64,000 bases of DNA, taken from NCBI RefSeq assembly GCF_004010195.1, contig NC_057749.1:7089416-7153415 (forward strand), in the 5' to 3' direction. The position numbers and the translations under genes are program-made. Source of the DNA: Chiloscyllium plagiosum (Eukaryota). Positions within the stretch are counted from its first letter, which is position 1. Every line of letters starts with the position of its first letter. Under the pieces are notes generated by a model. The model was not told the DNA's origin, ran no database searches, and saw only the letters and a program-made list of their open reading frames with translations. This document shows, one piece after another, positions 4,738-61,835 of the stretch.

Positions 4738-4865
4738 AAAGTGAGGACTGCAGATGCTGGAGATCAGAGTCTAGATTAGAGTGGTGCTGGAAAGGCATAT
4801 CAGGTCAGGCAGCATCTGAGGAGCAGGAAAATCGAAGTTTCGGGCAAAAGTCCTTCATCAAGAAT
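4738..4865 (-). mobile_element. Penelope-like terminal-repeat fragment, family A, decayed hammerhead core
   Basis: RC ttgatgaaggacttttgcccgaaacttcgattttcctgctcctcagatgctgcc. Confidence 0.8.
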
Positions 4866-5384
4866 AATTAAGGCTCTTGAACTGAACAGCTCCTGTTGAG
4901 TTTAATTCCCTGATCCCTGCAGAGAGGTTTGGCTGGAGGGGTGCTCGTATTTAAATTGCCTAACTAACCGGTCTGAGAGCCCAACAACATCCTTACTCCA
5001 CCTCCCCACCTCACCGCAACCCCAAGACTTGACCACCAATCCCCTGTGGCCTGGCTCCCTCAGAGGTCCTGAGCACTGGGTGCATGGATTACCAGCAGCT
5101 GTCACCTTTCCTGCTGGCGCTGCTAAGCAATGCCAATCTGTCACCCTCTGATTGGCTGGCAGCTTATGGCAAGCAAGATTTCCACTATCCCACAAGTGGC
5201 CACTGTTGCCCTGACAGGAAGTGGGCCTTTGCAAAAGGAGAAAACATGGGACTTGTGCTGCCTCGCTGACCAAGAAGAGAGACCCCTGTTCCAAAAGCCT
5301 GACACAAAAGATTTGGCTTTGAGAATGGGAGAACAAGAGGGAGACAAAATTATACACCTCAACATAAAGACGTACTAACACATA

Positions 5385-5550
5385 AGCAACAGAAACATAA
5401 AAAATAGGATCAGGAGTAGGCCATTTGGCCCTTTTGAGGCTGCTCCATCATTCCATATGAGATGGCTGATCATTCAAATCATTATCCTGTTCTCCTCATA
5501 ATCTTTGATTCCTTTAGCCTGAAGAATTACATCTGAGCCCTTCTTGAAAA
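5385..5550 (-). mobile_element. CR1 3' tail (older subfamily)
   Basis: aggagtaggccatttggccc...ctgctccatcattc...gatggctgat, similar to 50250. Confidence 0.65.
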
Positions 5551-6704
5551 CAGAAGTTATTTAGTGCATCTTATTATGCGCAAGCTGAAAAAGTACTGTC
5601 GGGTCTAATCCAATCTTCCAGCTTCCTTAAAGGTATGTTTAAGTTTTTTCAAACACAATGAAAGTTTCTGCCTCCACTATTTTTTCTGGCAGTGAGTTGT
5701 GGACTCCCACCTGGCTGAAAATAAATTACTCCTGAATTCCCCACTAATCTTTCCATGAATTCATCCTGTGAATCAACTGTCTTGGTGACAATATTAAACA
5801 TATTAAATACTTTCCCATGTACCTTGGCTGTACCTTTTAGGATTTTCAATGCATCAGTAAGGTTAAACATGCTCTCCTTGAGCAGTGGCTGCTGGTTACA
5901 TTCTTGGGCTGTGATTGGCTTCAGAACTGAGACTGATTTTTCCTCCCTATGACCTCCAGCCATGCAACGCTTTCTAGTCAGGGGTCACTGATGAATATCT
6001 CACGGTCATGACCACTGGCTGGCTTTTCCCGTGAATAGTTACTCCAGAGATAATGAGGCCAATTGAATTGGCCATTCACAGCTCTCTGGTGGCTAAATCA
6101 ACACCCCCTGACTATTGAATGGAAACCATTCTGTTATGTGTGATCTCAACACAGCAGATTATCCATTGATTTTAGAGTTACACAACAGCAACAACATACT
6201 GTGTATGCACCATGATCTTTCACCCTTTTATACTGAAGCTAAGACAAATTAAAGAGCAAAGGGCCAAGGGCAGAGATTGGCAGGTTGAGGACAAAAACTG
6301 TGCTGTTGGTTTTCAATTTGTATGCAGTCCTGAAGATCCTCAGAATGACACACGTTAAGAAGACTCATTCCTAGACAGCACAACATTGGGTGTACCACCA
6401 ATTTATACTACAATATACCAAGTTTTGCCACAAAGTACTAGCCTGTACCAGTGTACCCTGGTTGGGACACAGGGTTGTGCCACAGTAGTTTAATCAAAGG
6501 CAAAATGTGTCATGGCCTGAAAATGTACGGTACCAAAGAACCTGTTTGTATCTGGTGTGCAATCTGTGCCATAGTGTGCCAAACTGTGCCATTGTGCCAG
6601 GCCTATGCCATCAGGTACCGTCCCATGGCTATCCCACTTCTGATCTGGAGCTATAATAAGAGGGAAGTAGAAAGAGGTCAAGTGGGATCACAGTGCCACT
6701 GATG

Positions 6705-6905
6705 ACGAGCTTAGTTGGCTGAACAGCTGATTTGTGATGTCAGAGTGACACCATCAGCAGAGGGTCAATTCCTGTACCATGAAGGCCCTGCCCTTTCAAC
6801 GGTGCCCCTTGCCTGAGGTTTGGTGACCTTCAAGTTGAAAATATCATCAGCCATTCCTCTCTAGTGAGAGAGTAGCCAGTTGATCCTCTGGGACTATGGC
6901 AAGTT
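6705..6905 (+). mobile_element. tRNA-derived SINE (family 4)
   Basis: gcttagttggctg head ... tgagagagtagcc...gactatggc tail; homologous to 38735, 55505 and 63030. Confidence 0.65.
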
Positions 6906-7115
6906 CTATTGTATTGATTGGCCGGAGGTAGACAATTATATAGTTCCAACTTTGAGTTGAGGGTGTGTGGGAAGAAGACAAATTTAAACATATTATCAAT
7001 TGACACAAAGGAACAATCTTTTATGTTTATTGCCTTGTAACCACTAGCTCTATTGATTTGTTAAAATTGCTGATCCCCACCTTACTGGTTGCCCTGTGGA
7101 GTTAATCTGCAATAA

Positions 7116-7281
7116 TAGAGGAACCTCGATTATCTGAATGACACGGGCAGGGACTATTTTTGTCGGATAATCCAATGTTCGGTAATTAAATTCCAGATAA
7201 CACAGTTCAGCCAAGAGTTGGGACCTTGTGATCTTGCTGGATAATCTGAAATTCGGATAATCAATACTTGAGGTTCCTCTG
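7116..7281. mobile_element. Tc1/mariner (pogo/Tigger-like) MITE
   Basis: Terminal inverted repeats agaggaacctcgattatctgaa ... ttcggataatc(aatactt)gaggttcctctg; internal ggataatc subrepeats. Confidence 0.75.
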
Positions 7282-7289
7282 AACATAAA

Positions 7290-7393
7290 AACAAAATACT
7301 GTGAAAGTTGGAAATCTGAAACAAACACAGAGCATCTGTGGAGAGAGAAATAAGAGTCAATATTTCGAGTCTGGTGTGAGTCTTCTTCAGAAT
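7290..7393 (-). mobile_element. PLE fragment family B, decayed hammerhead
   Basis: RC ttctgaagaagactcacaccagactcgaaatattgactc...ctccacagatgct. Confidence 0.65.
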
Positions 7394-7604
7394 GGGTCTA
7401 AACTGGATTGATTTTTCCTGAGTCTAGGCAGTGCAAACATTGAATACTTAATGCAGTTTGGTAGATGCTGGGAGCAGGATTCAGGCCTCCAATTGTCTGG
7501 CTTTGTATGAGGAGGCCTGAACTTGTAGAAGCAACAGCATGTGCAATTCTATTTCAGCAGCTTCAGTCAACTCAGCCAGGAAAGATTCAATTCTACTAAT
7601 TGTG

Positions 7605-8258
7605 AGAGTGGAGTCACTGAGCACAGAAACAGACCCTTCAGTCCAATTTGTCCATGTCAACCAGGTATCCGAAACTGAACTAGTCCCATTTGCCTGTGCT
7701 TGGCCCATGTCCCTCTAAACCTTTCCTGTTCGTGTACCTGTCCAAATGTCTTTCAAATGTTGTAACTGTACCTACATCTACAACTTCCTCTGGCAGCTCA
7801 TTCCACATATGAACCACCCTCTGTCTGAAAACATTGCCCCTCGGGTCCCTTTTAAATCTTTCCCCTCTCACTTTAAACCTATGCCCTCCAGTTTTGGACA
7901 CCCCTACCCTCAGGAAAATACCTTATGCATGCCCCTCATGATTTTATAAAACTTTATAAGGTCCCCCTACATTCCAGGGAAAGAAGTCCCAGCCTATTCT
8001 TATCGGAACTTTAAAGCTCAAAACCTCCAGTCCTGGTAACCAGCAACCACCACTTCCTCTGGCAGCTCATTCCACACACACATCACCCTATGTTTGAAAA
8101 GGTTGCCCCTCAGGTTCTCTTTAAATCTTTCCCCTTTTACCTTAAAGCTATGTCCTTTAGTTTAGGACTCCACTACCCTGGGGAAAAGACCTTGACTATT
8201 CACCCTATCCATGCCCCTCATGATTTTATAAACCTCTATAAGGTCACCCCTCAGCCAC
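7605..8258 (-). mobile_element. HER1/CR1 3' fragments (two overlapping-region copies)
   Basis: GHRFKVRGERFKRDPRGNVFRQRVVHMWNELPEEV; same region repeats at 8045-8258. Confidence 0.9.
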
Positions 8259-8654: not shown

Positions 8655-8800
8655 CTCTCTGAAGGTGGGTCACTGGACTCGAAATGTCCAGTCCATTTCT
8701 CTCTCCACAAATGCTGCCAGACCTGCTGAATTTCTCCAGCAACTTCCACTCCTGCTTGTTTCAGATTTCCAGCATCTGCAGTTCTTTGTTTTATTTAGCT
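8655..8800 (+). mobile_element. PLE fragment family B, decayed hammerhead
   Basis: ctgaaggtgggtcactggactcgaaatgtc...ctctccacaaatgctgccagacctgctga. Confidence 0.75.
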
Positions 8801-12344: not shown

Positions 12345-13105
12345 AATCATAAGATCTCTAAAGTGCAGAAAAAGGCCATTTGGCCCATAGAGTCTGCCCC
12401 AACCCTCTGAAAAGCATCCCACCTAGACCCACCCCATCTTCATAGTTCCGTACCTATCACAACTAACCCATCTAAACCTGCACAACTCTGAACACCATGG
12501 GCCTGTTTAGCATGGCCAATCCACCTAACCTGTACATCTTTTCCCCGGAGCATCTGAGGCTGAGGGGTGACCTTATAGAGGTTTATAAAATCATAAGGGG
12601 CATGGATAGGATAAATAGGCAAAGTCTTTTCCCTGGGGTGGAAGAGTCCTGAACTAGAGGGCATAGGTTTAGGGTGAGAGGGGAAAGATGCAAAAGAGAC
12701 CTAAGCGGCAACTTTTTCAGGCAGAGGGTGGTACATGTATGGACTGAGCTGCCAGAGGAAGTGGTGGAGGCTGGTACAATTACAACATTGAAAAGGCACC
12801 TGGATGGGTATAGGAATAGGAATGTCTTGGAGGGATATAGGCTGGGTGCTGGCAGGCGGTACTGGATTGGGTTGGGACATCTGGTCGGCATGGATGGGTT
12901 GGACCAAAGGGTCTGTTTCAGTGCTATACATCTCTATGACTCTATGACTCTATCTTTGGACTGTGGGAGGCAACTGGAACACCCAGAGGACAGACACACA
13001 GACACACAGGGAGAATGTGTAAACTCCACTCAGATAGACACCTGAATGGGATTAAACCTAGGTCCTTAGCGCTGTGAGACAGCAGTGCTAACCACTGAAC
13101 GACCT
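12345..13105 (-). mobile_element. HE1 V-SINE split by a plus-strand CR1 insertion
   Basis: SINE reads ...tgtacatctt | ...ctttggactgtggga on either side of the insert. Confidence 0.85.
12542..12951 (+). mobile_element. HER1/CR1 3' fragment, well preserved
   Basis: RGERCKRDLSGNFFRQRVVHVWTELPEEVVEAG; ctatgact tail; atcttt at both junctions. Confidence 0.9.
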
Positions 13106-14847: not shown

Positions 14848-14888
<41 letters not shown>

Positions 14889-14939
14889 CTGTCTGAACCA
14901 CTGTGATTTCCAGCATTTGTTATTTTCCCCAGATTATTA

Positions 14940-15144
14940 CATTCAGTAGCATTTGTGGAGAGAAATCAGAGTTAACGTTTCGAGTCTAGTGACCCTTCCT
15001 CAGACCACAAGTTCTGAGGAAGGGTCACTGGTCCTGAAATGTCAACTCTGATTTCTCTCCACAGATACTTCTAGACCTGCTGAGGTTTTTCAACAATTTC
15101 TGTTTCTCTTTCTGATTTACAGCATCCGCAGTTCTTTCGGTATT
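14940..15144. mobile_element. PLE family B head-to-head inverted pair with TSD
   Basis: ttttccccagattatta at 14923-14939 and 15145-15161; arms 14948-15004 (-) and 15012-15068 (+). Confidence 0.85.
14968..15006 (-). ncRNA. Minimal hammerhead ribozyme core (family B)
   Basis: CUGAGGA-A-GGGUC-acua-GACUC-GAAA-CG-UU-aacuc. Confidence 0.7.
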
Positions 15145-15186: not shown

Positions 15187-15381
15187 GTGTTGAATGTGTG
15201 TTGCTGGAAAAGCACAGCAGGTCAGGCAGCATCCGAGGAGCAGGAAAATTGATGTTTCGGGCCGGAGCCCTTCATCAGGAACGTCGATTCTCCTGCTCCT
15301 CGGATGCTGCCTGACCTGCTGTGCTTTTCCAGCAACACACTCACAACTCTGATCTCCAGCAACTGCAGACCTCACTGTCCC
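15187..15381. mobile_element. PLE family A inverted pair
   Basis: Minus arm has cctgatgaagggctccggcccgaaacatc; plus arm starts aacgtcgattc; gattacta at both flanks. Confidence 0.85.
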
Positions 15382-16300: not shown

Positions 16301-17282
16301 TGGGTACTTCATTGTTCTCCACAGATGCTGCCAGACCTGCTGAGTGTCTCCAGCAATTTCTGTTTGGCTTTCAGAATTCCAACGTCCACAGTTCCAGTAA
16401 TGCACTGAACTACTAGGTACAGAGTAGGGTACCTATTTAGACAGATTCCACTTTCCAGCATTTGGCCATAGCCCTGAAGGTTATGACATTTCAAGTGCTC
16501 ATCCACGGACTTTTTAAAGGCCATGCAGTGTTTGCATTTCAATAGACTACCCTCACCTCATCAAACTCCACATCTTGCCTTGAGCAAGTGTCATCTTTGC
16601 TCTGATGAACCAACAGGCAATTGGAAAATCTAGCCTATTGCTTGGAGTCAGCACTTTGATTGTTGAGGGCGGGGTGATGTGAGGCAAAATGGAGACGGGT
16701 CTTTACCTCCAATGATTGAAACAATGACCAAAACATTTTCTTGAAATGGGCAAGGCTCTGTCAGGAGGTTAAAGCTGTAAATCTTGTACCTATACCAGAT
16801 TAAGTCCACTGTAGGAACCAGTGGGGGCTCCAGTAAAACCGCTGATGCATTCACTGAGATGATTTCCACTGTCACTGATCAGAGCGAGGAATAGTGAGAT
16901 GGTTTTGTGAATTGCATTCGAGGTACTGCGGGTGTGAAGGTGAGAAGTGAACAAAATAAAACATTTATACAATAAAAAGGCTGATTTCCCGAGGAATATT
17001 TCATAGATTTTTCCACCTTCTAATTCGAATTCTAAGGTCAGAATACTGGCACTAGACAGAGGAGAAAATATTGTTTGAACTTGCTGTGAGTGACTTTAAA
17101 GACATTTAGAATTTCACCATATATAGCCTGTCAGAACTCAAGCTGAATTTTTTTCTCTTTTTTTTGTGTTCTGTCTATAAGCATTATTCAGGTACATCAC
17201 CTCTCTGAACCTGCAGGCTTTTGAGTGCTTTCATATTTCACACTAGAGGATTGGTCCAAAGCTTAGCCACACAACAATGATT

Positions 17283-20727: not shown

Positions 20728-21355
20728 AATTCTAAGCTCATGGCCTTTGATCTGGAGTTTTCCACCTGAAGAAGCAATTTATCTCAATCCACCAGACTGA
20801 ATGCTTTAATCATCTTACACACCTCAATTGCATTACCCTTCATCTTCTGAACTCAAGGGTATACAAGCCTAGTCTGTAACTTGTCCTTGTAATTGAATGC
20901 TTTTAGCTCAGCTATGATACAAAATTGGAAGCACAATGGGATTTTAGCCTCAAGAGTAATTGTGTGTGAGATGATCTTATGGAAGTATGTAAAACTTGAA
21001 TTAATATTTAACAAGATAAAGCAGCAAAATCTTTAAATTTTAGGCAGATAATGGATCAAAAAGTCACCTTACAGGCAACTAATATCAGCATGTTCTTTCG
21101 CAGAGGATGATCAACATATTGAATAGATTCCCAGCTTTAGTGGAGACTAACAGCATGAAAACATTAAAGCACCAAATAGATACAACAATGTAGAGAGTTT
21201 AGGGTCATTCTGGATGAATGGGCTAAAATAGGATGACTATCTTTCCTTAATTGTAATTATCTTTTCTTTTGGATTGCAATAGAGTATACTATAGTAAATT
21301 AATTCCAAATGCATGACTTCATCATCTTTCTCGACGTAAAGGGGAACATGTTTCT

Positions 21356-21430
21356 GAAGATTTCCATCTTACCGTCATCAGGACAAATGCAAGAATGCCA
21401 ATTTTCATGATATCTCAACAATTTACATAA
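21356..21430 (-). mobile_element. PLE family C arm with decayed hammerhead
   Basis: RC ggcattcttgcatttgtcCTGATGAcggtaagatgGAAAtcttc; inverted partner at 23735-23790. Confidence 0.55.
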
Positions 21431-21706
21431 TTAGATTTGACTTAATGATGGCTGAACAATCGCGAGTGTGCTGTTATGTACACTAACAATCAATTTATTA
21501 TATCTGTTAACCTCGTAACATGGCTCACTTAAGAAGTGACGCATGCTCACAAACAGGGATCTGCTCTCTGCAACCAAAAATAATATGTTCAGGCTTCATA
21601 ACTTTTGTGAATTACACAGAAACGTAGGCAGCCTATAGTTCCCTGTCACTTCCTCCATGTCAAGGCCTTGACCAATCAGAGTCTGTTCTCCAACAAATCA
21701 ATGTCA

Positions 21707-23697
21707 AAGAACAAATAACAAAGAAATTTACAGCTCCGGAACAGCCTTTCAGCCCTCAAAGCCTGAGCCGATCCAAATCTACTGTCTAAACCTGTCGCCT
21801 ACTTCCTAAGCATCTGTATCCCTCTACTCCCCACCTACTCATGCATTTATCCAGACGCATCTTAAAGGGATCTACCATGCCTGCCTCAACTACCTCTGCT
21901 GGCAACGCGTTCCAGATGCCCACCACCCTCTGTGTGAAGTACTTGCCGCGTGTATCCCCCTTAAACCTTCCACCTCTCACCTTGAAGGTGTGACCTCTCA
22001 TCATTGAATCCTTCACCCTGGGAAAAAGCTTGTCTCTATCCACTCTGTCTATACTCTTCAAGATTTTGTAGACCTCATTCAGGTCCCTCCTCAATGTCCT
22101 TTTCTCTAATGAAAATAAACCTAACCTACTCAACCTTTCTTCAGAGCTAGCACCTGCCATACCAGGCAACATCCTCATAAACCTTCTCTGCACCCCCTCC
22201 AAAGCGTCCACATCCTTTTGGTAATGTGGCAACCAGAACTATATACAGTATTCTCAAATGTGGCCGGACCAATGTCTTGTACAATGTTAACATAACTTTC
22301 CAGCTCTTATACTCAATACCCCATCCAACGAAGGCAAGCATACTATATGCCCTCTTGACCACTCTATCCACCTGTGCAGCAACCTTCAGGGTACAATGGA
22401 CCTGCACTCCCAGATCTCTCTGCCCATCAACTTTTCCCAAGGGTCTTCCGTTCATTGTATCATTCGCTCTAGAATTAGTCTTGCCTAAATACATCATCTC
22501 ACATTTGTCCGGATTGAAATCCATCTGCCACTTTTCCGCCCAACTCTCCAGTCTATCTATATCCTCCTGTATTCTTTGGCAGTCCCTTCTGCTTTCTGCT
22601 ACTCCACCAATCTTTGTGTCATCTGCAAACTTGCTGGTCATACCAACAGTGCCCTCTTCCAGATCATTTATGTATACATTACAAACAACAGTGACCCCAA
22701 CACTGACCCCTGTGGAACACCACTGGTCACCTTTCTCCATTTCAAGAAACTCCCTTGTGGGTGGCACGGTGGCACAGTGGTTAGCATTGCTGCCTCACAG
22801 CGCCAGAGACCCGGGTTCAATTCCTGCCTCAGGCGACAGACTGTGTGGAGTTGCACATTCTCCCCGTGTCTGCGTGGGTTTCCTCCGGGTGCTCCGGTTT
22901 CCTCCCACTGTCCAAAAATGTGCAGGTCAGGTGAATTGGCCATGCTAAATTGCCCGTAGTGTTAGGTGCAGGAGTAAATGTAGAGGAATGGGTCTGGGTG
23001 GGTTGCGCTTCGGCAGGTCGGTGTGGACTTGTTGGGCCAAAGGGCCTGTTTTCACCCTGTAAGTAATCTAATCTAATCAATTACTACTCCCTGCCTCCTG
23101 TTGCTCAACCAGTTCTTTATCCACCTAGCTAGAACACCCTGCATACCATATGACTTCACTTTCTCCATTAGTCTATCATGGGGAACTTTATCAAATGCCT
23201 TACCAAAGACTATGTATATGACATCAACAGCCCTTCCTTCATCTATCAACTTGGTCACTTCCTCAAAGAACTCTATTAAGTTGGTAAGGCACGATCTGCC
23301 CCGCACAAAACCATATTGCCTATCACTGATAAGTCCATTCTTTTATAAATATATATATATATATATATATACATATATCCTATCCCTCAGTACCTTCTCC
23401 AGCAACTTTCCCACCACTGACGTCAGGCTCACTGGTCTGTAGTTACCCAGAATATTCCTACTACCCTTTTTGTACAACATGAGCAACCCTCCAGTCCTCT
23501 GGCACCTCACCTGTGTTTAAGGATGCCACAAAGATATCTGTCAGGGCCCCAACTATTTCCTCTCTCACCTCCCTCAGTAACCTGGGATAGATCCCATCCG
23601 GTCCTGGGGATTTGTCCACCTTAATAACCTCTAGCCTACCTGACACATCTTCCCTACTTATGTCAACTTGATCCAGACTAATCAAACTTCTATCTCT
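21707..23697 (-). pseudogene. 5'-truncated CR1/HER1 LINE with frameshifted reverse transcriptase
   Basis: KSPGPDGIYPRLLRE, RGRSCLTNLIEFFEEVT..KAFDKVPH, SGVPQGSVLG, YINDL..KFADDTK, FTQRVVGIWNALP; 7-bp TSD aatgtca at 21700-21706 and 23698-23704. Confidence 0.95.
22760..23078 (+). mobile_element. HE1 V-SINE inserted in the CR1 RT region
   Basis: Near-consensus head, V-domain and aatct tail. Confidence 0.95.
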
Positions 23698-23734
23698 AAT
23701 GTCATCTCTTCTTGTAGTGTAGACGGTAATTGAC

Positions 23735-23790
23735 AGAAATTTGTCATTCTCATATTTGTCCTGATGAGTGCAGGATAGAAAGCTTCAGCA
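23735..23790 (+). mobile_element. PLE family C arm with hammerhead-like core
   Basis: tttgtcCTGATGAgtgcaggataGAAAgcttc. Confidence 0.55.
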
Positions 23791-24049
23791 ATACGGTTGC
23801 TCTGATATAACACGGGATTCATTAGCACAAATTCACTGTTGTAAGATTGATAAATTGGGGACACTATTTCTAAAGCATGAACCTTTAAAACGTGTGTTGG
23901 TTGCAATGCAATTATGTCACCAACACTTTAAGTGCTGTGCTAAAGTGCTACTTTTCTATAAAACGGGGTTGCAGAAGAATGCAACCAACGCGTTACAGAA
24001 CAATTACCTCCATGTCTTTCTTTTCAGTTGTGTTCAATGTTATTTATTT

Positions 24050-24604: not shown

Positions 24605-24810
24605 AAGAATGACTTGCATTTTTATGGCACTTTTCACAACCAGCAGACAGTGCCAAATGTTTTCTGGTTAATTAAATATCTTTGAAATGCTGCCCTTTCC
24701 GAGAATGTAGGAAACATGGTCGCCAGTTTGCACATAGCACTGACCAGATTATGCATTCAATTTTGTTGGGATTGAGGGATGAATATTGACCAGGGCTGGA
24801 GATAAACCAT
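24605..24810 (-). mobile_element. Deu-domain SINE (SacSINE1-like) 3' part
   Basis: gacttgcattt...aatgtaggaaac...gagggatgaatattgacc. Confidence 0.65.
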
Positions 24811-24915
24811 TCTGAAGAAAGGCCAATGGACCTGAAACATTAACTCTGCTTTCTTTCCATGGATGCTGCCAGACCTGTTGAGTTTCTCCTGCCATTTCTG
24901 GTTTTTGTTCCAGAC
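24810..24915 (+). mobile_element. PLE family B fragment with hammerhead core
   Basis: ttCTGAAGAaaggccaatggacctGAAAcattaactc. Confidence 0.7.
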
Positions 24916-31354: not shown

Positions 31355-31479
31355 TTTTATCTCTCCACTCTGGAGGCTCCCTGCCTTCAGTCCTGATGAA
31401 GGGCTTTTGCCTGAAAAGTCGATTTTCCTGCTCCTCGGATGCTGCCTGACCTGCTGTGCTTTTCCATCACCACTCTAAT
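31355..31479 (+). mobile_element. PLE family A fragment with hammerhead core
   Basis: agtcCTGATGAagggcttttgcctGAAAagtcgatt; cttgaac at both flanks; nested in SINE family 3. Confidence 0.8.
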
Positions 31480-31964: not shown

Positions 31965-33200
31965 GAGAAAGACTAGTTTTCCATCAGCAATGGACATTTT
32001 GTGAAATGCAGTCACAGTTTAATGTAGGAAAACCAGCAGCTGATTTGAATATAGCAGGCGCCCACAAAATAGTCATGTTGTTTGCGTGTTTTCTGTAAAG
32101 TTGGTCGAGGGATAAACATTGGCCAAGCCGTCTGGGAGAACACGCTGTTAAAAAGCAAATTATTTCAGATGCTGGAAGTCTGAAACAAACACAGAGAGTG
32201 GTGGAGAAACTCAGCGGGAAAACTCATCTGTGCGGAGAGATAAACAGAGCAGACATTTCAAGTTTGACATGGTCTTCTCCAGAACTGAGTTCTCCAGCAT
32301 TTTCTCTGCATTTATTTCAGAACACATTCCTCTTCAAAACAATTCCAGGCAGCTGGAGTGTTGGTTTAAAATCTCAACTGGAAGGTGATTCCTCTGACAG
32401 TGCGGCACTCTCTCAGTATCTCAGACAGTGCAGCAATCCCTCAGTATCTCTGACAGTGCAGCACCCCCTCAGCATCTCTGATAGTGCAGCATGCACACAG
32501 CATTTCAGACAGTGCAGCACTCCCTCAGCATCTCTGATAGTGCAGCACTCTCTCAATACAGTGCAGCAATCCCTCAGTATCTCTGACAGTGCAGCACTCC
32601 CTCAGTCTCTCTAACATTACAGTACTCTCTCAATACAGTGTTGCACTGTCTCAGTATCTCAGACAGTGCAGCACTCCCTCAGTATCTCTGACAGTGCAGC
32701 ACTCCCTCAGTCTCTCTAACAGTACAGCACTCTCTCAATACAGTGTTGCACTGTCTCAGTATCTCAGACAGTGCAGCACTCCCTCAGTCTCTCTGACAGT
32801 GCAGCTCTCTCAATACAGTGTTGCACTCTCTCAGTATCTCAGACGGTGCAGCAATCCCTCAGTATTCAGATAGTGCAGCAGTCACTCAGCATCTCTGACA
32901 ATACACCACTCCCTCAGCACCTCTGACAATGCAGCACTCCCTCAGTATCTCAGACAGTGCAGTACTCTCTCAAGACGGTGCAGCACTCCCTCAGTACCTC
33001 AGACAGTGCAGCACTCCCTCAGTATTTCCATCAATGCAGCACTCTTTCAGCATCTTCAGTGGTGTAGCACTCCCCCAATACCTTGACAGTGCAGCATCCT
33101 AGAGCACTGTACCTCAGACAGTTCAGCCCTCCCTTAGCGCAGGAGTGCACTGGAGTATTGGTCATGATCTTTGTACTTGAGCCGTGGAGTGACATACTTA
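31965..33200 (-). mobile_element. Deu-domain SINE hosting a PLE insert (32150-32320) and an internal minisatellite
   Basis: aatgtaggaaa..gagggataaacattggcca before, gtgcactggagt after. Confidence 0.65.
32391..33140 (+). repeat. 28-bp minisatellite tctctgacagtgcagcactccctcagta
   Basis: Roughly 27 units, with 21-bp variants and a 105-bp higher-order period (ctaac at 32611 and 32716). Confidence 0.95.
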
Positions 33201-34704
33201 TACTTCAATGACCTCCAAATAATTAAAGCCAGACAAAATTTTGATTTTCGGATATATACACTCTCAACAAATGAGAGGTTTATTCTTCAAAGCAAGTGTA
33301 AGTTCTCTACTGGCTAGTGCATGACCCAGAGTGGTTTGATCAGCAGCAGACAAATGAGGAACGCGCTGGGAATAGTTAAAAAATCTGACTCCTATCATAG
33401 CGTACTTTTATCAGATTTACATAGAGGTTATTCTGTTGTACTGCATTATCACACAACACAGTTCTGTTTGAGCAGTTTCAAGGCCTCAGGCTTGCCTTTC
33501 CAATGCAGTTGAAACAGATGACCTTTGCACCCAAACCATCTCATGTTATATTCTCCGTCGCTGACAAAATTTGTTACTGTTGGCTTTTCCAATTGTGTCC
33601 TGGATCACTATGTACAACAGACTTCAGTTTGGGAGGGGAGGACTGCGGGGGTGGTGGGGGGAGAAAAGGGAGCATTTTGAAGCATTTCACTTCAAATCAG
33701 GCAGCTAATACTGGACCTCATCTTCATCGCATTCCTCAGCTTTATCTGATTTGTCTATTTTCATCTGCGTCCTTGTTGCTCAAGGCATCTTCACCTCGGC
33801 ATAAACAATGATTAAATTTGCACACATAAGACCTGCCTGCTCCAGTAATATATAGAGGCATCAAATCACAATCTGCAGGAGGTTCAAAGCAATATTAGAC
33901 TGTGGGAAATTGTACTGAAGGAGCTGCTGCTCTGAGTCTGATCAGTGACCCGATACTGAGGCCCAGCAGAATGACAATCTTATTATTATTTACAACCGGC
34001 CGGAGATATTCAGACAGAAAGCTTTTCAATTACCAACATGCAAAGCCCACTTAATAATAAACACTCACAGCTCTTCATTTTATGCTTTCTTTCCTCTCCA
34101 TCTCTCCCAAAGGCACTCAGTAATTCCACCGGGAAGTCTGGGCCGCACGGTCCATCTTCACACTGTGTGGATCCCGGGCCGATACCCCGATGGATGATGG
34201 TTGCAACTGCTTTTGAAAGGGATCACTGTCATGATCAAACACATTGGCCATATTTCGGTCTCCCTCGTCCAGGACCATTGATGTGGACTATAGCACATGT
34301 GCCAAATGTGTAACAGGGGTGACACACATTGGGTGAAATGATTGCTGAGGGATGACTGAGTGCATTGACTCTCTGATGCCCTGCATCAAGGAGCAACCTA
34401 TGCCAATCTTGACAACCCACTCACCGAGTCCTCGGTATTGGCTAAACCTTGCGGTGGGACAGGAAACCCATATAATCGCAAGGGAGCAGGTAAGTTACCA
34501 TCTGCTACAAGCTCCAAACTGACTAGGACCATCAGAGATTGGTGTGTGTTATAGGACAATTAAGCAGTGTCCTCCAAGCACGGCATGGCAGCCTGCCAGC
34601 CCAGCGTGTGCGTCTTCTGGTGGTACGTGGTGGTCTCTCGGTCAGGCATGGTCTCAGCATGGTCTCCTGATCTCAAAGTGATTCTAGAGCCATCTCATAG
34701 CCTA

Positions 34705-35826
34705 GACCCGGTGCAGACTGGAGCCACGGCCCAGTGGGGTCTGGAGCCAAGACGCAGTGCGGTCTGGAGCCACGGCCCAGTGTGGTCTAGAGCCAAGACC
34801 CAGTGCAGTCTGGAGCCACAGCCCCAGTGCGGTCTGGAGCCAAGACCCAGTGTGGCTGGAGCCATGGCCCAGTGCGGTCTAGAGCCAAGACCCAGTGCAG
34901 TCTGCAGCCATGACCCAGTGTGTCTGAAGCCAAGACCCAGTGCGGTCTGGAGCCACAGCCCAGTGCGGTGTAGAGCCAAGACCCAGTGCGGTCTGGAGCC
35001 ACAGCCCAGTGCAGTCTGGAGCCAAGACCCAGTGCGGTCTGGAGTCATGGCCCAGTGTGGTCTGGAGCCACGACCCAGTGCGGTCTAGAGCCAAGACCCA
35101 GTGCAGTCTGCAGCCATGGCCCAGTGTGGTCTGGAGCCAAGACCCAGTGTGGTCTGGAGCCAAGACCCAGTGTGGTCTGGAGCCAAGACCCAGTGCAGTC
35201 TGCAGCCACGGCCCAGTGCGGTCTGGAGCCAAGACCCAGCGCGGTCTGGAGCCAAGACCCAGCGCGGTCTGGAGCCAAGACCCAGTGCGGTCTGGAGCCA
35301 AGACCCAGTGTGGTCTGGAGCCAAGACCCAGTGCGATCTAGAGCCAAGACCCAGTGTGGTCTGGAGCCAAGACCCAGTGCGATCTAGAGCCAAGACCCAG
35401 TGCAGTCTGGAGCCAAGACCCAGTGCGGTCTGGAGCCACGACCCAGTGCGGTCTGGAGCCAAGACCCAGTGCGGTCTGCAGCCACGGCCCAGTGTGGTCT
35501 GGAGCCAAGACTCAGTGCGGTCTGGAGCCACAGCCCAGTGCGATCTAGAGCCAAGACCCAGTGTGGTCTGGAACCACAACCCAGTGCGATCTGGAGCCAA
35601 GACCCAGTGCAGTCTGGAGCCAAGACTCAGTGCGGTCTGGAGCCACAGCCCAATGCGGTCTGGAGCCACGGCCGTGTGTGGTCTAGAGCCAAGACCCAGT
35701 GCGGTCTGGAGCCACAGCCCAGTCCGGTCTGGAGCCACAGCCCAGTGCGGTCTAGAGCCACAGCCCAGTGCGGTCTAGAGCCAAGACCCAGTGCGGTCTG
35801 GAGCCACGGCTCAGTGTGGTCTAGAG
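34705..35826 (+). repeat. 23-bp minisatellite cccagtgcggtctggagccaaga
   Basis: About 48 units; source of all the repetitive ORFs at 34.5-35.9 kb. Confidence 0.97.
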
Positions 35827-36895: not shown

Positions 36896-37344
36896 ATAAG
36901 CTGCAGACTGAAAGGTGATGTCGCCAGTTATTAGAATTCACTTCCACATTATTTGCAGATCTGGCTTCGGGTACAATGGTCCTGTCAATTCAAACTGGAT
37001 CGCCAAATTAAATTTCATCTGTCCAAGGTATCCGTGACAATAATGCAAACTAGTTATCCAGATAACCATGTGCAGCTGAATGAAAGTTCAATTTCTGCAC
37101 CCAAAGCATTTATTTGTCTACTTCTTGCTTAAGTGCTAAGGGAACGAGTTAAGTTCTTTTGCAGTTTTAATTAATAGGATTTCCCTATCTGAGTCCCAAT
37201 GTTTCACCATAATTAAATTTATATTTCATGGTTGCAGTTAAGATAGGACAAATAATACAACTAGAGAGCAGCAGAAAGGAATGGTCCTCATAATCTCCCA
37301 TTGGCTCTCTCTCGCTGCTTCCCTGTAGCCCCTTCATTATTTTG

Positions 37345-38171
37345 ATTAGATTCCCTACAGTGTGGAAACAGGCCCTTTGGCCCAACAAGTCCACACCAAC
37401 CCTCTGAAGAGTAACCTACCCAGACCAATTCCCAACCCTATATTTACCCCTGACTAATGTCCCTATCACTATGGGCAATTTATCATAGGCAATTCACCTG
37501 ACCAACCCCACCGCCCCATGGCTAAACATTTCAACTCCCTCTCTCAATCTGCCGAGGACATGCAGGTCCTGGGCCTCCTCCATCACTATTCCCGCACCAC
37601 CCAAAGCCTGGAGGAAGAATGTCCTATCTTCCACATTGGAATCCTTCAACCCGAGGATATCAATGTGGACTCCACCAGTTCCCTCATTTCCCCTCCCTCC
37701 GTCCCAACCTTCCAGCTCAGAACCGCCCTCATGACCTGTTCATCTTCCTTCCCACCTATCCACTCCGCGCTATCACCTTCACCCCCACTTCCATCAACCC
37801 ATTGCACTCTCAGCTACCTTCTCCCCAGCCCCACACCCCCCTCCTATTTATCTCTCCACCCCTGAGGCTCCCAGCCTCATTCCTGATGGAGGGCTCCTGC
37901 CTGAAACGTCAATTTTCCTGCTCCGCGGATGCTGCCTGACCTACTGTGCATTTCCAGCAACACACTCTCAACTTGGATCTCCAGCATCTGCAGACCTCAC
38001 TGTCTCCTAATTCACCTGGCCTGCACATCTTTGGACTGTGGGAGGAAACCGGAGCACCTGAAGGAAACCCACGCAGACACGGGGAGAATGTACAAGCCCC
38101 ACATAGTCACCCAAGGCAGGAATCGAACCCAGGTCCCTGGCACTATAAGGCAGCAGTGCGAACCACTGAGC
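37345..38171 (-). mobile_element. HE1 V-SINE split by a Penelope insertion
   Basis: SINE 37345-37500 and 38009-38171. Confidence 0.9.
37501..38008 (+). mobile_element. Penelope-like element 3' end: GIY-YIG endonuclease C-terminus plus terminal repeat with hammerhead
   Basis: AKHFNSLSQSAEDMQVLGLLH...LEEECPIFHIGILQPEDINVD resembles PLE EN ends; core cctgatggagggctcctgcctgaaacgtc; 10-bp TSD aattcacctg (37491-37500, 38009-38018). Confidence 0.85.
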
Positions 38172-43185: not shown

Positions 43186-43385
43186 CGTGAGGACTGCAGA
43201 TGCTGGGGATCAGAGTTGAAGAGTGTGGTGCTGAAAAAACACAGCTGGTCAGGCAGCATCCGAGGAGCAGGAGAATTGACGTTTCGAGTATAAGAGATGA
43301 AGGATTTATACTCGAAACGTCGACTCTCCTGCTCCCCGGATGCTGCCTGACCGGCTGTGCTTTCCCAGCACCACACTCTTCAACT
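43186..43385. mobile_element. PLE family A inverted pair
   Basis: Arms meet at ...gtttcgagtataag/agatgaaggatttatactcgaaacgtc; caccct..gagat at both flanks. Confidence 0.85.
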
Positions 43386-43699: not shown

Positions 43700-43962
43700 T
43701 GGGAATGCAAAGCGAAATTGCTGGAGAAACTCAGCAGGTCTGGCAGCATCTCTGGAGAGAAAGCAAAGTTAGCATTTCAGGTCAACTTGACTCAGATTAG
43801 GTAGATTGGCCATGGAAAATATAGGGTTATGGGAATAGAGTGGACTGGGGGGGGGGGGGGGGGGTGGGCAGCAGATCTGGGTGGGATGGTCTGCGGAGAG
43901 TCAGTGCAGACTTGATGGGCTGAATGGCCTCTTACCACACTGTTGGGATTGGCTGATTCTAA
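43700..43962. mobile_element. PLE family B piece (-) followed by HE1 SINE 3' half (+) with G18 run
   Basis: gctggagaaactcagcaggtctggcagcatc; gattggccatggaaaat...tgaatggcct. Confidence 0.7.
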
Positions 43963-46039: not shown

Positions 46040-46710
46040 CATTCGTTCCAAGCTCCTACAGAAACTCAGTCGAGTACACAGCTCAGACCATCACGAAAGC
46101 CAACCTCCCCATCCGTGGGCTCCATCTATGTTTCTTGCTGTCACTGAAAAGCTGCCAACATCATCAAGCGCTCCTGCCCGAAACGTCAATTTTCCTGCTC
46201 CTCGGATGCTGCCTGACCTGCTCTATGTTTCTTGCTGTCACTGAAAAGCTGCCAACATCATCAAAGATGAAGCGCTCCTGCCCGAAACGTCAATTTTCCT
46301 GCTCCTCGGATGCTGCCTGACCTGCTATGCATTTCCAGCACCACTCTAATCTTGACTCTAATCTCCAGCATCTGCAGTCCTCACTTTGGCCTAACATCAT
46401 CAAAGACCCCTCTCACCCCAGTAATACACTCTTTCAACCTCTTCCATCAGGCAATAGGTACAGAAGCTTGAACACATGCTTCTTCCCTGATGCTTTTAGA
46501 CTTCCAAATAAACCTCTCTAATTTCAAATCTAACGTTGATCATGCTTTTGTGCATCTCCTGTGCAGCTGTAACTCTGTGTGCCTTGCTCTGTCTGAACAC
46601 CCTGTGATCTGCACGTCCTTATATCTTACCATCTGCCTGTACTGCTCACAAAACAAAACCTTTCACTGTACTTAGGTACAGGTGACAATAATAAATCAAA
46701 TCAAATGAAA
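46040..46710 (+). mobile_element. Rex/Babar LINE 3' end interrupted by PLE family A insertion
   Basis: NIIKDPSHPSNTLFQPLPSGNRYRSL; aaatc-repeat tail; aacatcatcaaaga duplicated 46254-46267 / 46393-46406. Confidence 0.8.
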
Positions 46711-47384
46711 GATCTTCATAGTCAATATAATAACATAAAACAACAAGTTTCATACTGTTTGTATATTAGTGAAGCAGTCTGTTTCTCTGGATGTTGTGGA
46801 ATTTCTGCAGAATTTGAGTAACCCAGATATCCTCCATCATATATAATGTTCCATGAAAGCAATATTACAGTGTGCTGCAGAATACCACTTGCATTCTATT
46901 AAAACATAGGGGTCACTATTTTCAAATGAGCAATCTTTCAGTTTAGATAGAAATGACAACGATTTGTTTCCTCGCAACAAGTTATTAATCTATGGAATTC
47001 TCTAATCCAGATAAATCATTGAATACGTTCAAGGTTGTGTTGGGCAGATTCTGAATGACTAGGCAGTCAAGGTGATGGGCAGGAAAGTGGAGGTAAAGCC
47101 TCAATGAAGCTACCCATAACCCGATAGAATGATGGGCATATTGGAGGGCCGAATGGTCTCCTCCTGCTCATTTCTCCTAGCTGTAGTTACCTAATAGCAA
47201 CAGATCAGATTTTGTAGTGCCACTGCAGCAGTGCATTCAGCACACACACTGCAGATAGTTAGAGATACCCAAAGCTTCCAGAGTGCTGTGCACCAATCTG
47301 AAGTTGAGCCAAGCTAACTAATCCTATTTCCAAACATTTGTTGCTCGAGACCAAACAACAACAAACTGAAAAAGTGTGGGATAT

Positions 47385-47514
47385 TAAAACAAAAATCTGT
47401 GAATACTAGAAATCTGAAACTAAAACAAGTTGCTGAGAAACTCAGCAGGTCTGGCAGTATTCATGTAACTGGAACAGACTTAATGTTTCAAGTTCAATGA
47501 CCCTTCTTCAGGAC
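47385..47514 (-). mobile_element. PLE family B fragment with hammerhead core
   Basis: RC tcCTGAAGAagggtcattgaacttGAAAcatt. Confidence 0.7.
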
Positions 47515-47573
47515 TGCACATATGCGATAATTGCGTTGCTGATTTCAAATTAATTACTACATAAAATCGTCTC

Positions 47574-53720: not shown

Positions 53721-53724
53721 GAAT

Positions 53725-54365: not shown

Positions 54366-54401
54366 AATTCTGATGAAGGGCTTTTGCCCGAAACGTCGAT
54401 T
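54366..54401 (+). ncRNA. Minimal hammerhead ribozyme (family A), intact core
   Basis: aauu-CUGAUGA-A-GGGC-uuuu-GCCC-GAAA-CG-UC-gauu. Confidence 0.75.
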
Positions 54402-54496
54402 TTCCTGCTCCTCGGATGCTGCCTGATCTGCTGTGCGTTTCCAGAACCGCTCTAATCTTGACTCTAATCTTCAGGGTCTGCAGCCCTTACTTTCTC
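54369..54496 (+). mobile_element. 128-bp PLE family A insertion with perfect 15-bp TSD
   Basis: caaggtgaaggcaat at 54354-54368 and 54497-54511. Confidence 0.9.
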
Positions 54497-55169
54497 CAAG
54501 GTGAAGGCAATGTCAAGGACTGTCATCAGAATTAGACTTCCAAGTTATACTATTTATTATCCATTAATATTGAATACTACTACACATAGTAATCACACAT
54601 ATATTAGGCTGCTGCTTATAGTTACATTCGATGAGGACTAATCTGAACTATTCGTGTGTCTGCATCCATGGTTAGGTTGACATAGTCCTCGACTCTAAAG
54701 TGTAGAGTGCAGTCTAGTACTGTTCCTTCTAAGGCGATGAAACTCCACTTGCCTTGCTACTTATACGCAATGATGTGCAATTCCTTTATACCATCACAAG
54801 GTCGCTCCAGGGTCTGAATACTCTGATACAACACTGGAGTCATTCAACGTCATTATCAGTGCAGTCAAAATGGTAAGGCATCATCCCCATGTCTCTTTCC
54901 CTGGGTTGCTAACAACGCTATGCTCACAGAGCGTGAGGTTTGAAGATTGTGCCATTCAAGGTCACAAACCTCCACTCTCCTCAGAGTTGGGTAGGTCTGA
55001 CAGGGTTGGACAGGTGAACGAGCACAGCTCAGCAGGGCATCTGATTTCTGTTGTAGGATGGAGGTTGAGCTTGTGGTGGACATCAGCGCTATATCAGAGT
55101 TCTTAGGCTTGCCGCCTGTATCTGGAGCATGGTAATATTTGAGCATAACTCTAGACAAGTGGCAAATAA

Positions 55170-56290: not shown

Positions 56291-56304
56291 GTAGTCAGTG
56301 AATA

Positions 56305-56690: not shown

Positions 56691-57455
56691 GAATAAGACA
56701 CCTGAAGAGTGAAGAACAGGTAAGAGAAGTGGTCAGTGACAGGATAGCTGATTGGGAGAGAGGGATGGCAAGTCAAGTTGATAGAAAGGCACCAAGGGGA
56801 AAGGTACGGAAGGGATGAGTGGGAGAAGTGGAGAGTGAGGAGATGGCAGAGTAAGGGAACAGTGAGCAAGTTGACCACTCGAATGTCAAGTGAGGGTTAT
56901 GTGGTGAAGACCACTGACAAACATATACTTCACACACAATTAATCTGCAGAATTCTGAGAAAAAATATCACTTTTGCTTTTATTGTTTTCGATCATGTTT
57001 CCTCATACTTGCATTTCTTGCCACTGGGTCCTGTGATGTTCTGTAAACCGTCGTGCAAAACATTGTGAAAGCAGAAGGCCCGGCGGTAAGTGTATAAACT
57101 AACCTCATTATATTCATGATATAACAAATGAAGCAGCTTAAAATGGGTCCTTACTGTATTGGCTTGCTGCTGGTTCCCTTTGGTTACACAGTGAAGTGTC
57201 TTGTGGTATTTTCTGACATTAAAGCCGCTTATATAAATACGAGTTAGAATTGCTGTTAAGTTAGTCAAGAGCCTTGCCTCTTGTAAGGACTCATCGTGAG
57301 TTTAGAAACAGGGGTCTTCAAATGCCTTAAGGCACTTCTGCCTCTTCTAAGATACGGATAGAAAATCCTGCAAGGGAAGGGTACTCCACAGTTCCAAATA
57401 TGTAATTCTGCTCTTAAGGAACTTTACAAAGCCAAAGCACAGCCTTGCCTAACAA

Positions 57456-57640
57456 GGTCAGAAGTCACACCACACCAGGTTACAGTCCAACAGGTTTATT
57501 TGAAATCACAAGCTTTCGGAGAGCTGCTCCTTCATCAGGTGAATGTTTGTGATTTTAAATAAACCTGTTGGACTATAACCTGGTGTTGTGTGACTTCTGG
57601 CTTTGTCCACCACAGTCCAACACTGGCACCTCCACACCAT
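57456..57640. mobile_element. PLE family D palindromic insertion
   Basis: Arms cagaagtcacac...caggtttatttgaaatcaca / tgtgattttaaataaacctg...gtgtgacttctg; taacaa at both flanks. Confidence 0.8.
57506..57542 (-). ncRNA. Minimal hammerhead ribozyme (family D), intact core
   Basis: ucac-CUGAUGA-A-GGAG-cagcu-CUCC-GAAA-GC-UU-guga. Confidence 0.7.
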
Positions 57641-58819: not shown

Positions 58820-59275
58820 TGGCGTTAGAGGAATATTATTCTAGGGACGAGGAATGCCAGTTGTGGAGAGGTTAGAACTAGTTTTTTTCTCAGAACAGAG
58901 AAGGTTGAGAGGAGATTTAATTGAGGGTTGCAAAATTACGTTGGGGTCTGGAGAGATAGGGAGAAGCAGTTCTTACTGGTGGGTGGATTGAATAGAAGAG
59001 GTCACAGATTTAAGGAAACTGGCTAAAAACAAGCAATGAAGGCACAAGGAAGTCTTTTTCACATTGTGAGTGGTTCGGGTCTGAGTTGCATTGCCCAAGA
59101 GTGTGGTGGAGGCTGGTTCACTCAAGGTGAATGGGAAGGAGCTAGTTACTTTGAAAGGAGGAATGGACGTGGTTACACTGAGTAAATGGGGAGCAGCTCC
59201 TGGTGAATTGTTCCTTTGGAGAGGAAGCAGAGATGCAGTGGGCTGAATGGCCTCTCTTCTGGGCTTTAACTCTGC
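58820..59275 (+). mobile_element. CR1 3' fragment
   Basis: cagagaaggttgagaggagatttaattgag...gtggtggaggctggttca. Confidence 0.8.
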
Positions 59276-59285
59276 TGTGATGCTC

Positions 59286-59470
59286 GTTGAAAAGTATGGC
59301 GTTGGAAAATCATAGCAGGTCAGACAGAATCCGAGCAGCAGGAGTATCGACGTTTTGGGCATAAGCCTTTCATCAGGAATGCTCCTCAGATGTTGGCTGA
59401 CCTGCTGTCCTGTTCCAGCGCCACACATTTCGACTCTGATCTCCAGCATCCGCAGTCTCACTTTCTCCTA
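59286..59470. mobile_element. PLE family A inverted pair, decayed core
   Basis: RC cctgatgaaaggcttatgcccaaaacgtcgat; gatgct at both flanks. Confidence 0.8.
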
Positions 59471-60519
59471 GATGCTGTCATCCTATACAAGTTGGGGATG
59501 TGCAAGACTCCAGTGCTGAAGGAACTGTAGAGCTGACAGAGGTTACAGAGGGTTTACAGTGGAAGGAAAAAGCTTTCCTTGATGCAGTGTGCTCCTCATT
59601 TCAAAACAGCTTAACTTGGATTATGCTAATTTGATTGAAGTCATGCAAAAAGGCACCCTCATGTTGTTTTATTAAATTGCTTCATTCATAGTACTGGATA
59701 ATTACATTTCTTTTCGAGCGAAAAATGACTTCAAATGAACAGGAATAGACTCTGCATCATTTCTGGTATTTACACAGAAGCTGAATAAGATGCCATCTCT
59801 ATCTGGAACATCTGGTTCAGCTCATAATGGGTTCTTCAAAGGGGGGCTTTGCCTGCGCTGAAGCAAAAGTGTCCTCTGGCATTAGCAACTCGCCGCTTCT
59901 CATTGTCAATTGCTGCCAGTCCTCCTCACACATGTTTTGAACTGGGGGTGGGGGTGGGGGGACAGAGAGAGAGAGATGGAGAGAGAGAGAGAGAGAGAGA
60001 GCTTCTGTGCCAAAGGGAGGGTTATAAAGAAATCGAGTAATCTACGTAGAGAAGGATGGTGCCCAAATTATGCTGAACAGAAACAAAAACAAAATGTTCC
60101 TGGTTTGAGTGAGATACTGTGTCAATCTGAAAGGAGGTGGGGTAGGGGTGGTGGGGGAGGTGGAATTCTACAAATTGATGGCTCCCAGGGCTGGTGATTG
60201 ATGTTCTCAATAGGGAAACGACCAGACTATAGAGAGTGAAAGAGAAAGACAGAGAGAGGCAGAGGTAGAGATAGAGAGCAAGTGAGAGACAGCAAGAGAT
60301 AGAGAGAAAGAGAGATAGTGAGACAGAAAGAGGGATAGAGACATAGAGAGAGAGAAGGAAAAATGACTGCATTTATATAGTGCATAATCAGCAGACAACC
60401 AAAGGCACTTTCCAGCTAAAGAAATCCCAATTTCATGTGCAATCCCTTTGCAGTGCAGAAAAATCAGCAAACCAATGTGCGCATAGCAATCTCCCTCAAA
60501 CAGCAATGTGATAATTAAC

Positions 60520-60780
60520 TTGAACACACGCACCAACAGGTTCAAGAGCAGCTTCTTCCCTGTTGTTATTAGACTGCTGAATGGAACTCTCTAACTTCAA
60601 ATAATGTTGAACCTGCTTTGTGCAACTCCAGTACAGTGTAACCTTGTATGCCTTGCTCTGTCTAAGCACCCTCTGATCTGGATGTCCTTATTTGCTCTGA
60701 TCTACCTTACTACTGCTCACAAAACAAAGCTTTTCCCTGTACCTAGGTAGATGTGACTACAATAAATGAAATCAAATCAA
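60520..60780 (+). mobile_element. Rex/Babar 3' tail, inserted next to a Deu-SINE remnant (60360-60515, -)
   Basis: accaacaggttcaagagcagcttcttccct...aaatcaaatcaa. Confidence 0.75.
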
Positions 60781-61589
60781 CCTGAGGGCTGCCTGTAGAT
60801 GGTAATTTTCTGCTTTCACCAAATGTTTCCCAAGGTGACCCCACTTCGAGGTTTGGACATTGTGGTGACCCCCTCAATGAGACTGGTGGGAGCTTGGAGG
60901 TTAAGAGTGTTGGCTCTGTGAAAGTTGTTGTAAATCAGCCACTGTTACCTTAACACTCACGAACGCAAGCGTTCAGCTTACGAATCTACTTGGGATGCCA
61001 ATCCCCTTGCCCCGCACAGGATATCGGTGACATCTGTGATTTTCATATTTTAATAGGAACCAGTGAATTGCAATGCTGAGGAGTGTCTGCCACAATTCTG
61101 AAATTCCATTGACCTGAAACTGAATTTAAATTAGTCAGCACCCAGAAACCCATAGCCATGAATGGCAGCCCACTCATATACACAGCCAAGAACACCATCT
61201 TTACAGCGTTAGAGGAACAGAAATCACAGGACTTGTTCTCAAGATCAATAAAAATATCAGATTTTTGTGTTTTAGAAAGAAACATGGTAAGTTGGCATGT
61301 TCAGTGACCATGAAACAGTGATCTTGATGACAGCTGATGTCTCAATGTTTGTAAAAGCCTCTCTCTCAGTGTAATCATATGTGAAAATGTCGAGTCAGTG
61401 GTCAGCATTCTAATCAGACGCTGAAGAGAGACTTCAAGCTGTGTGAGTTTGAGACCTTGGTTACTGGAGCAAACTTGGATTCATGCAGCTTCTCTCTACA
61501 CTTTTAAACACTCCAAAAGGATGTTTGAAGTTTAATCGCGGCTGTATTTTTCATATTAACTCGTCGTACGTGGGTGTCTCTGGCTGGCT

Positions 61590-61835
61590 AGGATGGAGGG
61601 GAACCTGCAGGTGGTGGTATTCCCCTGTAACTGCAGGGAGAAAGTGAGGACTACAGATGCTGGAGAGCCAGAATCGAAAAGGGTGGTGTTGGAAAAACAC
61701 AGCAGGTTAGGCAGCATCCGAGGAGGGGGAGAGTCGACGATTCGGGCAGAAGCCCTTAACTGCTGCCCTTGTCCTTTCAAATAGAAGTGGTCGTGGGTTT
61801 GGAAGGTGCTGTCTGCACTGCATCTAGTAGACAGT
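61590..61835 (-). mobile_element. CR1 family 2 piece with nested PLE family A (61635-61757)
   Basis: taactgc duplicated around the insert. Confidence 0.75.

Follow-up and report, generated by a model that had tools for sequence, protein, structure and literature searches.

The short repeats scattered over a 64-kb stretch of the genome of the shark Chiloscyllium plagiosum (assembly GCF_004010195.1, contig NC_057749.1, positions 7,089,416 to 7,153,415 of the forward strand) are very probably retrotransposition products that were dead on arrival and stem from three or more endonuclease-bearing lineages of Penelope-like elements (PLEs). The lineages are referred to as family A, which has subfamilies, family B, and family D. 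The stretch, hereafter the window, comprises 64,000 nt of a 3.56-Gb assembly and contains 351 N; positions are counted from its first letter. Its elements combine canonical PLE anatomy with a published minimal hammerhead, which is an ordinary and known arrangement. A reading made from the sequence alone, referred to as the original prediction, had described about 20 short Penelope-derived insertions in four ribozyme-bearing families, A to D, amplified in a retrozyme-like manner. The short repeats are real, and the observation is confirmed in part, most of it holding. The interpretation is supported in part, in that the PLE origin holds, and the retrozyme-like reading and family C do not.

Using BLAST with natural reference copies, we located 19 insertion loci in the window, ten of family A, eight of family B, and one of family D. 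This equals approximately one locus per 3.4 kb and matches the predicted density of about one per 3 kb. Fold-back pairs make up three of the ten A loci, one of the eight B loci, and the only D locus. The family A core, CTGATGAAGGGC-N4-GCCCGAAAC, was matched seven times in the window with up to three mismatches, and never in 100 shuffles. The core-truncated A copies (43192-43384, 46163-46222, and 61640-61757) were also recovered by BLAST, and the A cores and truncated A copies of the original prediction are hence real. Family D, predicted at 57506, was found as a fold-back at 57454-57604 with its core at 57510-57538(-). Most of the predicted family B sites were recovered at E ≤ 1e-6; this threshold gave no match at two of them, 14811 and 32250, which by eye are heavily decayed at best. 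A strict descriptor demanding three helices and both core boxes is passed in the window only by 54370-54397 and 57510-57538, and a looser descriptor by eight copies. The remaining copies are mutated, mostly at CpG sites. The Rfam hammerhead models gave no match in the window, either at the gathering score or at E ≤ 10, presumably because the motif is devoid of a stem III hairpin. Exact matches in the whole genome number 12,078 for A (26,334 with a shorter pattern), 22,803 for D, and 43 for B, which is old and CpG-decayed.

The PLE origin of family A is supported by the sequence upstream of the hammerhead. The window copy at 37503-38004 extends upstream into the end of an open reading frame (ORF) for a GIY-YIG-like nuclease; candidate matches to this ORF end number at least 64,994 genome-wide. 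We inspected 30 fetched loci; the locus samples used throughout are modest and partly motif-selected, as they consist of the flanks of fetched loci and small later fetches. An A core lies no more than 800 nt downstream of the ORF end in 23 of them (strict in 12, relaxed in 11), mostly at 380–440 nt, and was found in neither form in the other seven. In locus L042, the ORF end (...YCIRCSRCSLHYIGETGRLLAERFREH...) is followed by a stop codon, a 165-nt 3′ untranslated region (3′UTR), and the hammerhead. YIGETG and CxxC motifs, which we take to be typical of PLEs, are visible in this ORF end. Four other loci (L091, L093, L100, and L101) have a GTAAGT...TTCCAG stretch of approximately 70 nt that resembles a retained short intron in the 5′ part of the A ORF, located about 90–160 nt upstream of an internal ATCATGG. 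PLEs are reported to retain introns.

The ends of the copies are likewise those of PLEs. Aligned genome copies of all three families agree on their 3′ side and break off at varying places on their 5′ side, and head-to-head pairs are frequent among them. Two alternative 3′ ends are 35–37 nt apart; counted relative to CUGA, as are all copy limits below, they fall at about +81 and +126 in A, with equivalents in B and D. Locus L096 holds a partial tandem, in which the 3′UTR, the hammerhead, the short end, and a 35-nt tail come first and the next unit begins with an ATG 40 nt farther on. Unit junctions of this type occur 1,986 times in the genome. A composite in L004 and L046 turned out to be a normal junction of the same type. 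An inverted 5′-truncated copy adjoins a 5′-truncated element in L090, L094, and L095, and an inverted copy is also present in L008 and in the fold-backs of the window. The predicted Penelope origin of family A is thus borne out by its fixed distance from a PLE-type ORF end, the tail, the partial tandem, and the inverted 5′ copies.

Families B and D are linked to PLEs via family A. The region upstream of D matches pieces of the A ORF in a tblastn search (E = 3e-14, 44% identity over 72 residues). In L097 (82-414), a decayed GIY-YIG-like ORF end with 30% identity to that of A (E = 2e-7) is followed by a CA-rich stretch and then by a D-type 3′UTR of about 400 nt; the 3′UTR of family D seems unusually long in this locus. 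D hence lies downstream of homologous ORF remnants, and B has the downstream box of A, so the Penelope origin predicted for these two families is supported as well. Several observations count against the assignment. The ORF end of L042 matches the Pfam GIY-YIG family (PF01541) with E = 3.1e-4 and 21.4 bits, just under the cut-off of 22.6. The ORF of L097 has no Pfam match, and no link to an ORF was found in the sampled copies of B. In separate searches, Pfam gave no match either for the window ORF at 37458-37865 or for a 352-residue frame of L040, and a genome scan with PF01541 gave one weak match among the 150 scored of 14,403 candidates.

Families A, B, and D all carry a predicted minimal hammerhead of the PLE type. 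The common module opens with helix I and CUGANGA, continues with an extra A, helix II, and GAAA, and closes with a palindrome of 4 nt and H17; approximately 55 nt separate it from the two alternative 3′ ends. Helix I has a strand of 3–4 bp and helix II has 4–5 bp in the three families. CUGANGA and GAAA are present in type I order. The palindrome takes the place of a stem III hairpin; together with the H17 that follows, it reads ACGU-C in family A, ACGU-U in family B, and AGCU-A in family D. This layout of a type I motif with a loop-less, palindromic stem III, as proposed in the original prediction, is the one published for metazoan PLEs (Cervera and de la Pena, 2014; PMC4209133). The extra A that A, B, and D had been said to share after CUGANGA is confirmed by the aligned copies, where all three lineages have one unpaired A between A9 and G10.1 as well as a G10.1-C11.1 pair. 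Folding of the monomers predicts helix II only. Among the sampled copies, core boxes have been lost by decay in 15 of 48 A copies, two of four B copies, and six of 40 D copies.

The stems differ among the families while the catalytic nucleotides are kept, as had been predicted, and the changes are compensated. At 10.3-11.3, families A and B have G-C where D has A-U. At 10.4-11.4, every family has a pair of its own, C-G, U-A, and G-C for A, B, and D, respectively. At 15.2-16.2, families A and B have C-G where D has G-C. The pairs of helix I are unlike in the three families, and pairing is retained in each. The covarying pairs come from three independent lineages only, and the statistics are accordingly thin. 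We then compared conservation within 40 A copies that had not been selected by motif. Non-CpG core positions deviate from the majority by 2.8%, helix II by 5%, and the flanks by 18.5%. Much of the flank variation in A lies between subfamilies, which indicates that the core signal reflects selection on master copies and not on stubs. Both the covariation of the stems and the conservation of the core relative to the flanks therefore speak for the hammerhead assignment; cleavage activity is predicted from the sequence.

The repeats would arise as follows, by analogy with known PLEs. The PLE reverse transcriptase would initiate inside the RNA at two 3′ sites and copy toward the 5′ end. An early stop would yield 5′-truncated stubs, frequent addition of an inverted 5′-truncated copy would yield fold-backs, and the product would be inserted with target-site duplications of 10–17 bp. 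The hammerhead would be retained by selection in master elements, not in stubs.

The 5′ ends of the copies pile up at the border of the hammerhead. Among 68 incidental A copies, 27 start at −8 to +3 with a mode of −4, and the share of copies whose first base lies exactly 4 nt ahead of CUGANGA is about one third to one half. In the 26,334 exact cores, the native ATTC at −4 to −1 is present in 20,361 and the native bases at −9 to −5 in 12,401. Reads and contigs of several organisms diverge into unlike flanks at exactly −4. The depth rises 7- to 24-fold at −4, a figure that overstates the share of short copies since the upstream 3′UTR varies by subfamily and the reads were required to be 90% alike. 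We then inspected 20 ORF-bearing copies that include a unit junction. Their upstream partial units start anywhere from −126 to +97, none of them at −8 to +3, and seven run through −4. The border is therefore not a block to reverse transcription, which points to a separate short template RNA. For long copies, we discarded the idea that the full-length RNA begins at −4 (0 of 20). Tentatively, the 5′ edge of the hammerhead may correspond to the 5′ end of a sub-genomic template RNA that starts 4 nt before CUGANGA and gives units of about 85 or 130 nt; we regard this as possible rather than probable. Such an RNA could possibly originate from transcription at a motif with an A exactly at −4, which is TTATTCC or TCATTCC in A and TCAGTTC in B and is presumably initiator-like. 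The other possible origin is 5′-to-3′ trimming of the PLE RNA that stops at the folded hammerhead or at a bound PLE protein.

If the hammerhead is active, stem III would form only by pairing of the palindromes of two motifs, and the cut would follow H17 (C in A, U in B, and A in D) in two-unit transcripts. Minimal hammerheads act as dimers (PMC4209133; reviewed in PMC6765202), and by analogy we infer that the shark modules may self-cleave as dimers and have a role in processing multi-unit RNA. The following results weigh against cleavage. Published minimal PLE hammerheads cleave poorly even as dimers (PMC4209133), and catalytic mutants of a green anole PLE insert normally in vitro (PMC11167929). 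Not one of the 68 incidental A copies has its 5′ end at +26 to +30, where the cut is predicted. In the 1,298 aligned reads of RNA run X22, no accumulation of molecule ends was reported at any position, including the cut site, although this is a weak test, as the library is a poly-A single-cell one and approximately 2% of it was read. The X22 reads cover both strands about equally, which together with the lack of an end pile fits passive transcription of dispersed copies. Raw-read run X23 gave no aligned reads, and none of the listed records that contain the stretch is registered as RNA.

These results are what one would expect if the module were kept for a role other than cleavage, either as a part of the RNA bound by the PLE protein or as a marker of the 5′ border of the template, with little or no cutting in vivo. 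The protein-binding motif of the anole PLE is within the approximately 172 nt after the hammerhead (PMC11167929), and in the shark many copies begin exactly at the 5′ edge of the module. However, the catalytic core, the G10.1-C11.1 pair, a non-G H17, and the palindromic 15.2-16.2 pair are all kept across three lineages with compensated stems. A core that is kept while the stems covary is the signature of a working hammerhead and not of a mere protein-binding site. A role of the module other than cleavage is thus rather unlikely.

The original prediction had viewed the short units as retrozyme-like, that is, as a non-autonomous class of its own that is transcribed, cut by the hammerhead, circularised, copied back, and amplified independently of ORF-bearing elements. 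Part of this description fits: the pile at −4, with its 27 of 68 incidental copies and its loss of native bases beyond −4, shows that about one third to one half of the copies are discrete units spanning from the hammerhead 5′ edge to the 3′ end. The claim of SINE-sized units (short interspersed nuclear elements) is therefore half right. In addition, a preprint links the vertebrate retrozymes without long terminal repeats (non-LTR retrozymes) with the terminal repeats of PLEs, and its positive cases include one chondrichthyan (10.64898/2026.07.22.740005). Like the animal non-LTR retrozymes (PMC7229834; 10.64898/2026.07.22.740005), the shark units are short, non-coding, hammerhead-bearing, and related to PLE repeats. 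The published retrozymes differ in that they form head-to-tail arrays, have canonical type I hammerheads with loop–loop contacts, and give circular RNA, whereas the copies described here lie scattered as monomers and as head-to-head pairs and bear minimal hammerheads of the PLE type. Head-to-tail arrays were absent from the window, where a local duplication of 104 bp, which takes in flanking sequence, is the sole tandem, and from the repeated same-strand matches in 335 kb. Given this and the lack of any copy starting at the cut site, retrozyme-like amplification is unsupported. Subfamily variants are common to short and long copies, as would be the case if the short copies were by-products of each autonomous subfamily. 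We consider an independent retrozyme-like class very improbable.

That the motifs are chance matches of a loose descriptor in repetitive DNA can practically be dismissed, as the A core was not matched in the shuffles, reversed-pattern controls gave zero in every genome search, and the strict descriptor gave 67 matches in 335,619 bp (the window plus loci, most of which were chosen by motif) and none in the reversed sequence; this explanation fits family C alone. The two C copies, at 21300-21440(-) around site 21356 and at 23690-23830(+) around site 23761, have both CUGAUGA and GAAA but no helix II, and they resemble only each other (78.6% over 56 nt). Family C is hence a chance look-alike outside the PLE families. 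Of the four hammerhead families in the original prediction, A, B, and D were recovered, and C was not upheld.

The module closely resembles the minimal hammerheads of metazoan PLEs (PMC4209133). Both are of type I, have a short helix I and a G10.1-C11.1 pair, and leave one nucleotide unpaired between A9 and 10.1. Both have a palindromic 15.2-16.2 pair and no stem III hairpin, occur as several covarying families per genome, and are found mostly as single motifs in truncated PLEs, with some close pairs on opposite strands. Different from the Schistosoma families, in which helix II has 7–8 bp, that of the shark families has 4–5 bp. PAc, the Poseidon PLE found in the green anole (PMC11167929), also is a multi-unit element and also has two 3′ ends, 30–40 nt apart and about 80–130 nt after the hammerhead, which fits internal initiation of reverse transcription at two sites with formation of the tail. 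The PAc ORF starts at the AUG within CUGAUGA, whereas the family A ORF starts 40 nt past the tail (L096). Endonuclease-bearing PLE units in general (EN+; Craig et al., 2021; PMC8557442) share with those of the shark the heavy 5′ truncation, tandem pseudo-LTRs (pLTRs), inverted 5′ copies, and a tail of 30–40 bp. We found no difference from the available part of that description, in which a pile of 5′ ends at the hammerhead edge is not mentioned.

Hammerheads have been described in the PLEs of fishes, coelacanth, amphibians, and reptiles (PMC4209133), an expansion of PLEs in a shark genome has been published (10.1101/443036), and one chondrichthyan has been scored for retrozymes (10.64898/2026.07.22.740005). 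As to the suggestion that such elements are not described for sharks, our literature search found no paper naming shark PLE hammerheads, although supplements, which lay outside the search, may list them, and the PLE expansion itself is in print.

The family A copies of the window are mostly stubs. Stub 4733-4867(-) spans −6 to +126 and has a core at 4837-4861(-) with two mismatches. Stub 31356-31474(+) spans −37 to +81, uses the short 3′ end, and has a core at 31393-31417(+), also with two mismatches. Stub 54370-54497(+) begins at CUGA, has an exact core at 54370-54397 (pattern match 54370-54394(+)), and is flanked by a 15-bp target-site duplication. The longest copy, 37503-38004(+), contains the end of the nuclease ORF, the 3′UTR, a mutated core at 37883-37907(+), and the 3′ end. 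It sits inside another repeat, a SINE-like element whose parts at 37342-37502 and 38010-38171 it separates, with a 10-bp target-site duplication. Stub 61640-61757(-) is truncated in the core at +6. Stub 46266-46385(+) is truncated at +2 and has a 14-bp target-site duplication; a pattern match to the core lies at 46264-46288(+). Stub 46163-46222(+), which spans +3 to +62, is within the local tandem duplication mentioned above (46125-46326), each 104-bp unit of which consists of a core-truncated A stub and 44 nt of flank; the duplication postdates the insertion. The three A fold-backs, each with copies on both strands, are at 15191-15368, with an exact core at 15254-15278(-) placed in the hairpin loop; at 43192-43384, with arms truncated within the core at +11 and +2; and at 59297-59465, with a core at 59352-59376(-) containing two mismatches.

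The family B stubs are 7331-7392(-), spanning −2 to +55 and decayed; 8658-8799(+), spanning −1 to +137 with a mutated core; 24810-24904(+), spanning −2 to +92 with a decayed core; and 47383-47516(-), spanning −5 to +132, also with a decayed core. Two further B copies are 3′ pieces, 16316-16394(+) from +42 to +120 without the hammerhead, and 43709-43778(-) from +22 to +92. The B fold-back at 14948-15137 has arms at 14948-15004(-) and 14996-15137(+) with a core in both. The whole pair is enclosed by a target-site duplication of 17 bp, with its copies at 14923 and 15145, which shows that the pair results from one insertion event. The target-site duplications of single stubs are 10–15 bp, and those of the window overall 10–17 bp. 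The D fold-back at 57454-57604 has arms at 57454-57546(-) and 57548-57604(+), and its complete minimal hammerhead is at 57510-57538(-). Rfam gave weak matches resembling microRNA precursors (E 0.9–9) at 43246-43352, 15224-15312, and 57491-57567. We rejected these as microRNA-like hairpins because they are simply PLE fold-backs.

The other main repeat of the window consists of 3′ ends of a CR1/L2-like long interspersed nuclear element (LINE), with about ten copies including 1304-1615, 2004-2368, 12368-13104, and 21786-22948; an RVT_1 domain of such an element is at 22147-22794(-). A 23-bp minisatellite with 49 copies (34699-35826) and a 28/105-bp satellite (32392-33096) explain the GC-rich block at 32–36 kb.

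With the shark, an arrangement in print since 2014 gains a very abundant example from a large vertebrate genome; on its own this matters little, self-cleavage being a prediction. The scale of tens of thousands of motif-perfect copies is useful for annotation, in which fold-back PLE stubs may be mistaken for hairpin RNAs. The pile of 5′ ends at −4, absent upstream of ORF-bearing elements, offers a cheap handle on the PLE template RNA and on the role, if any, of the hammerhead.

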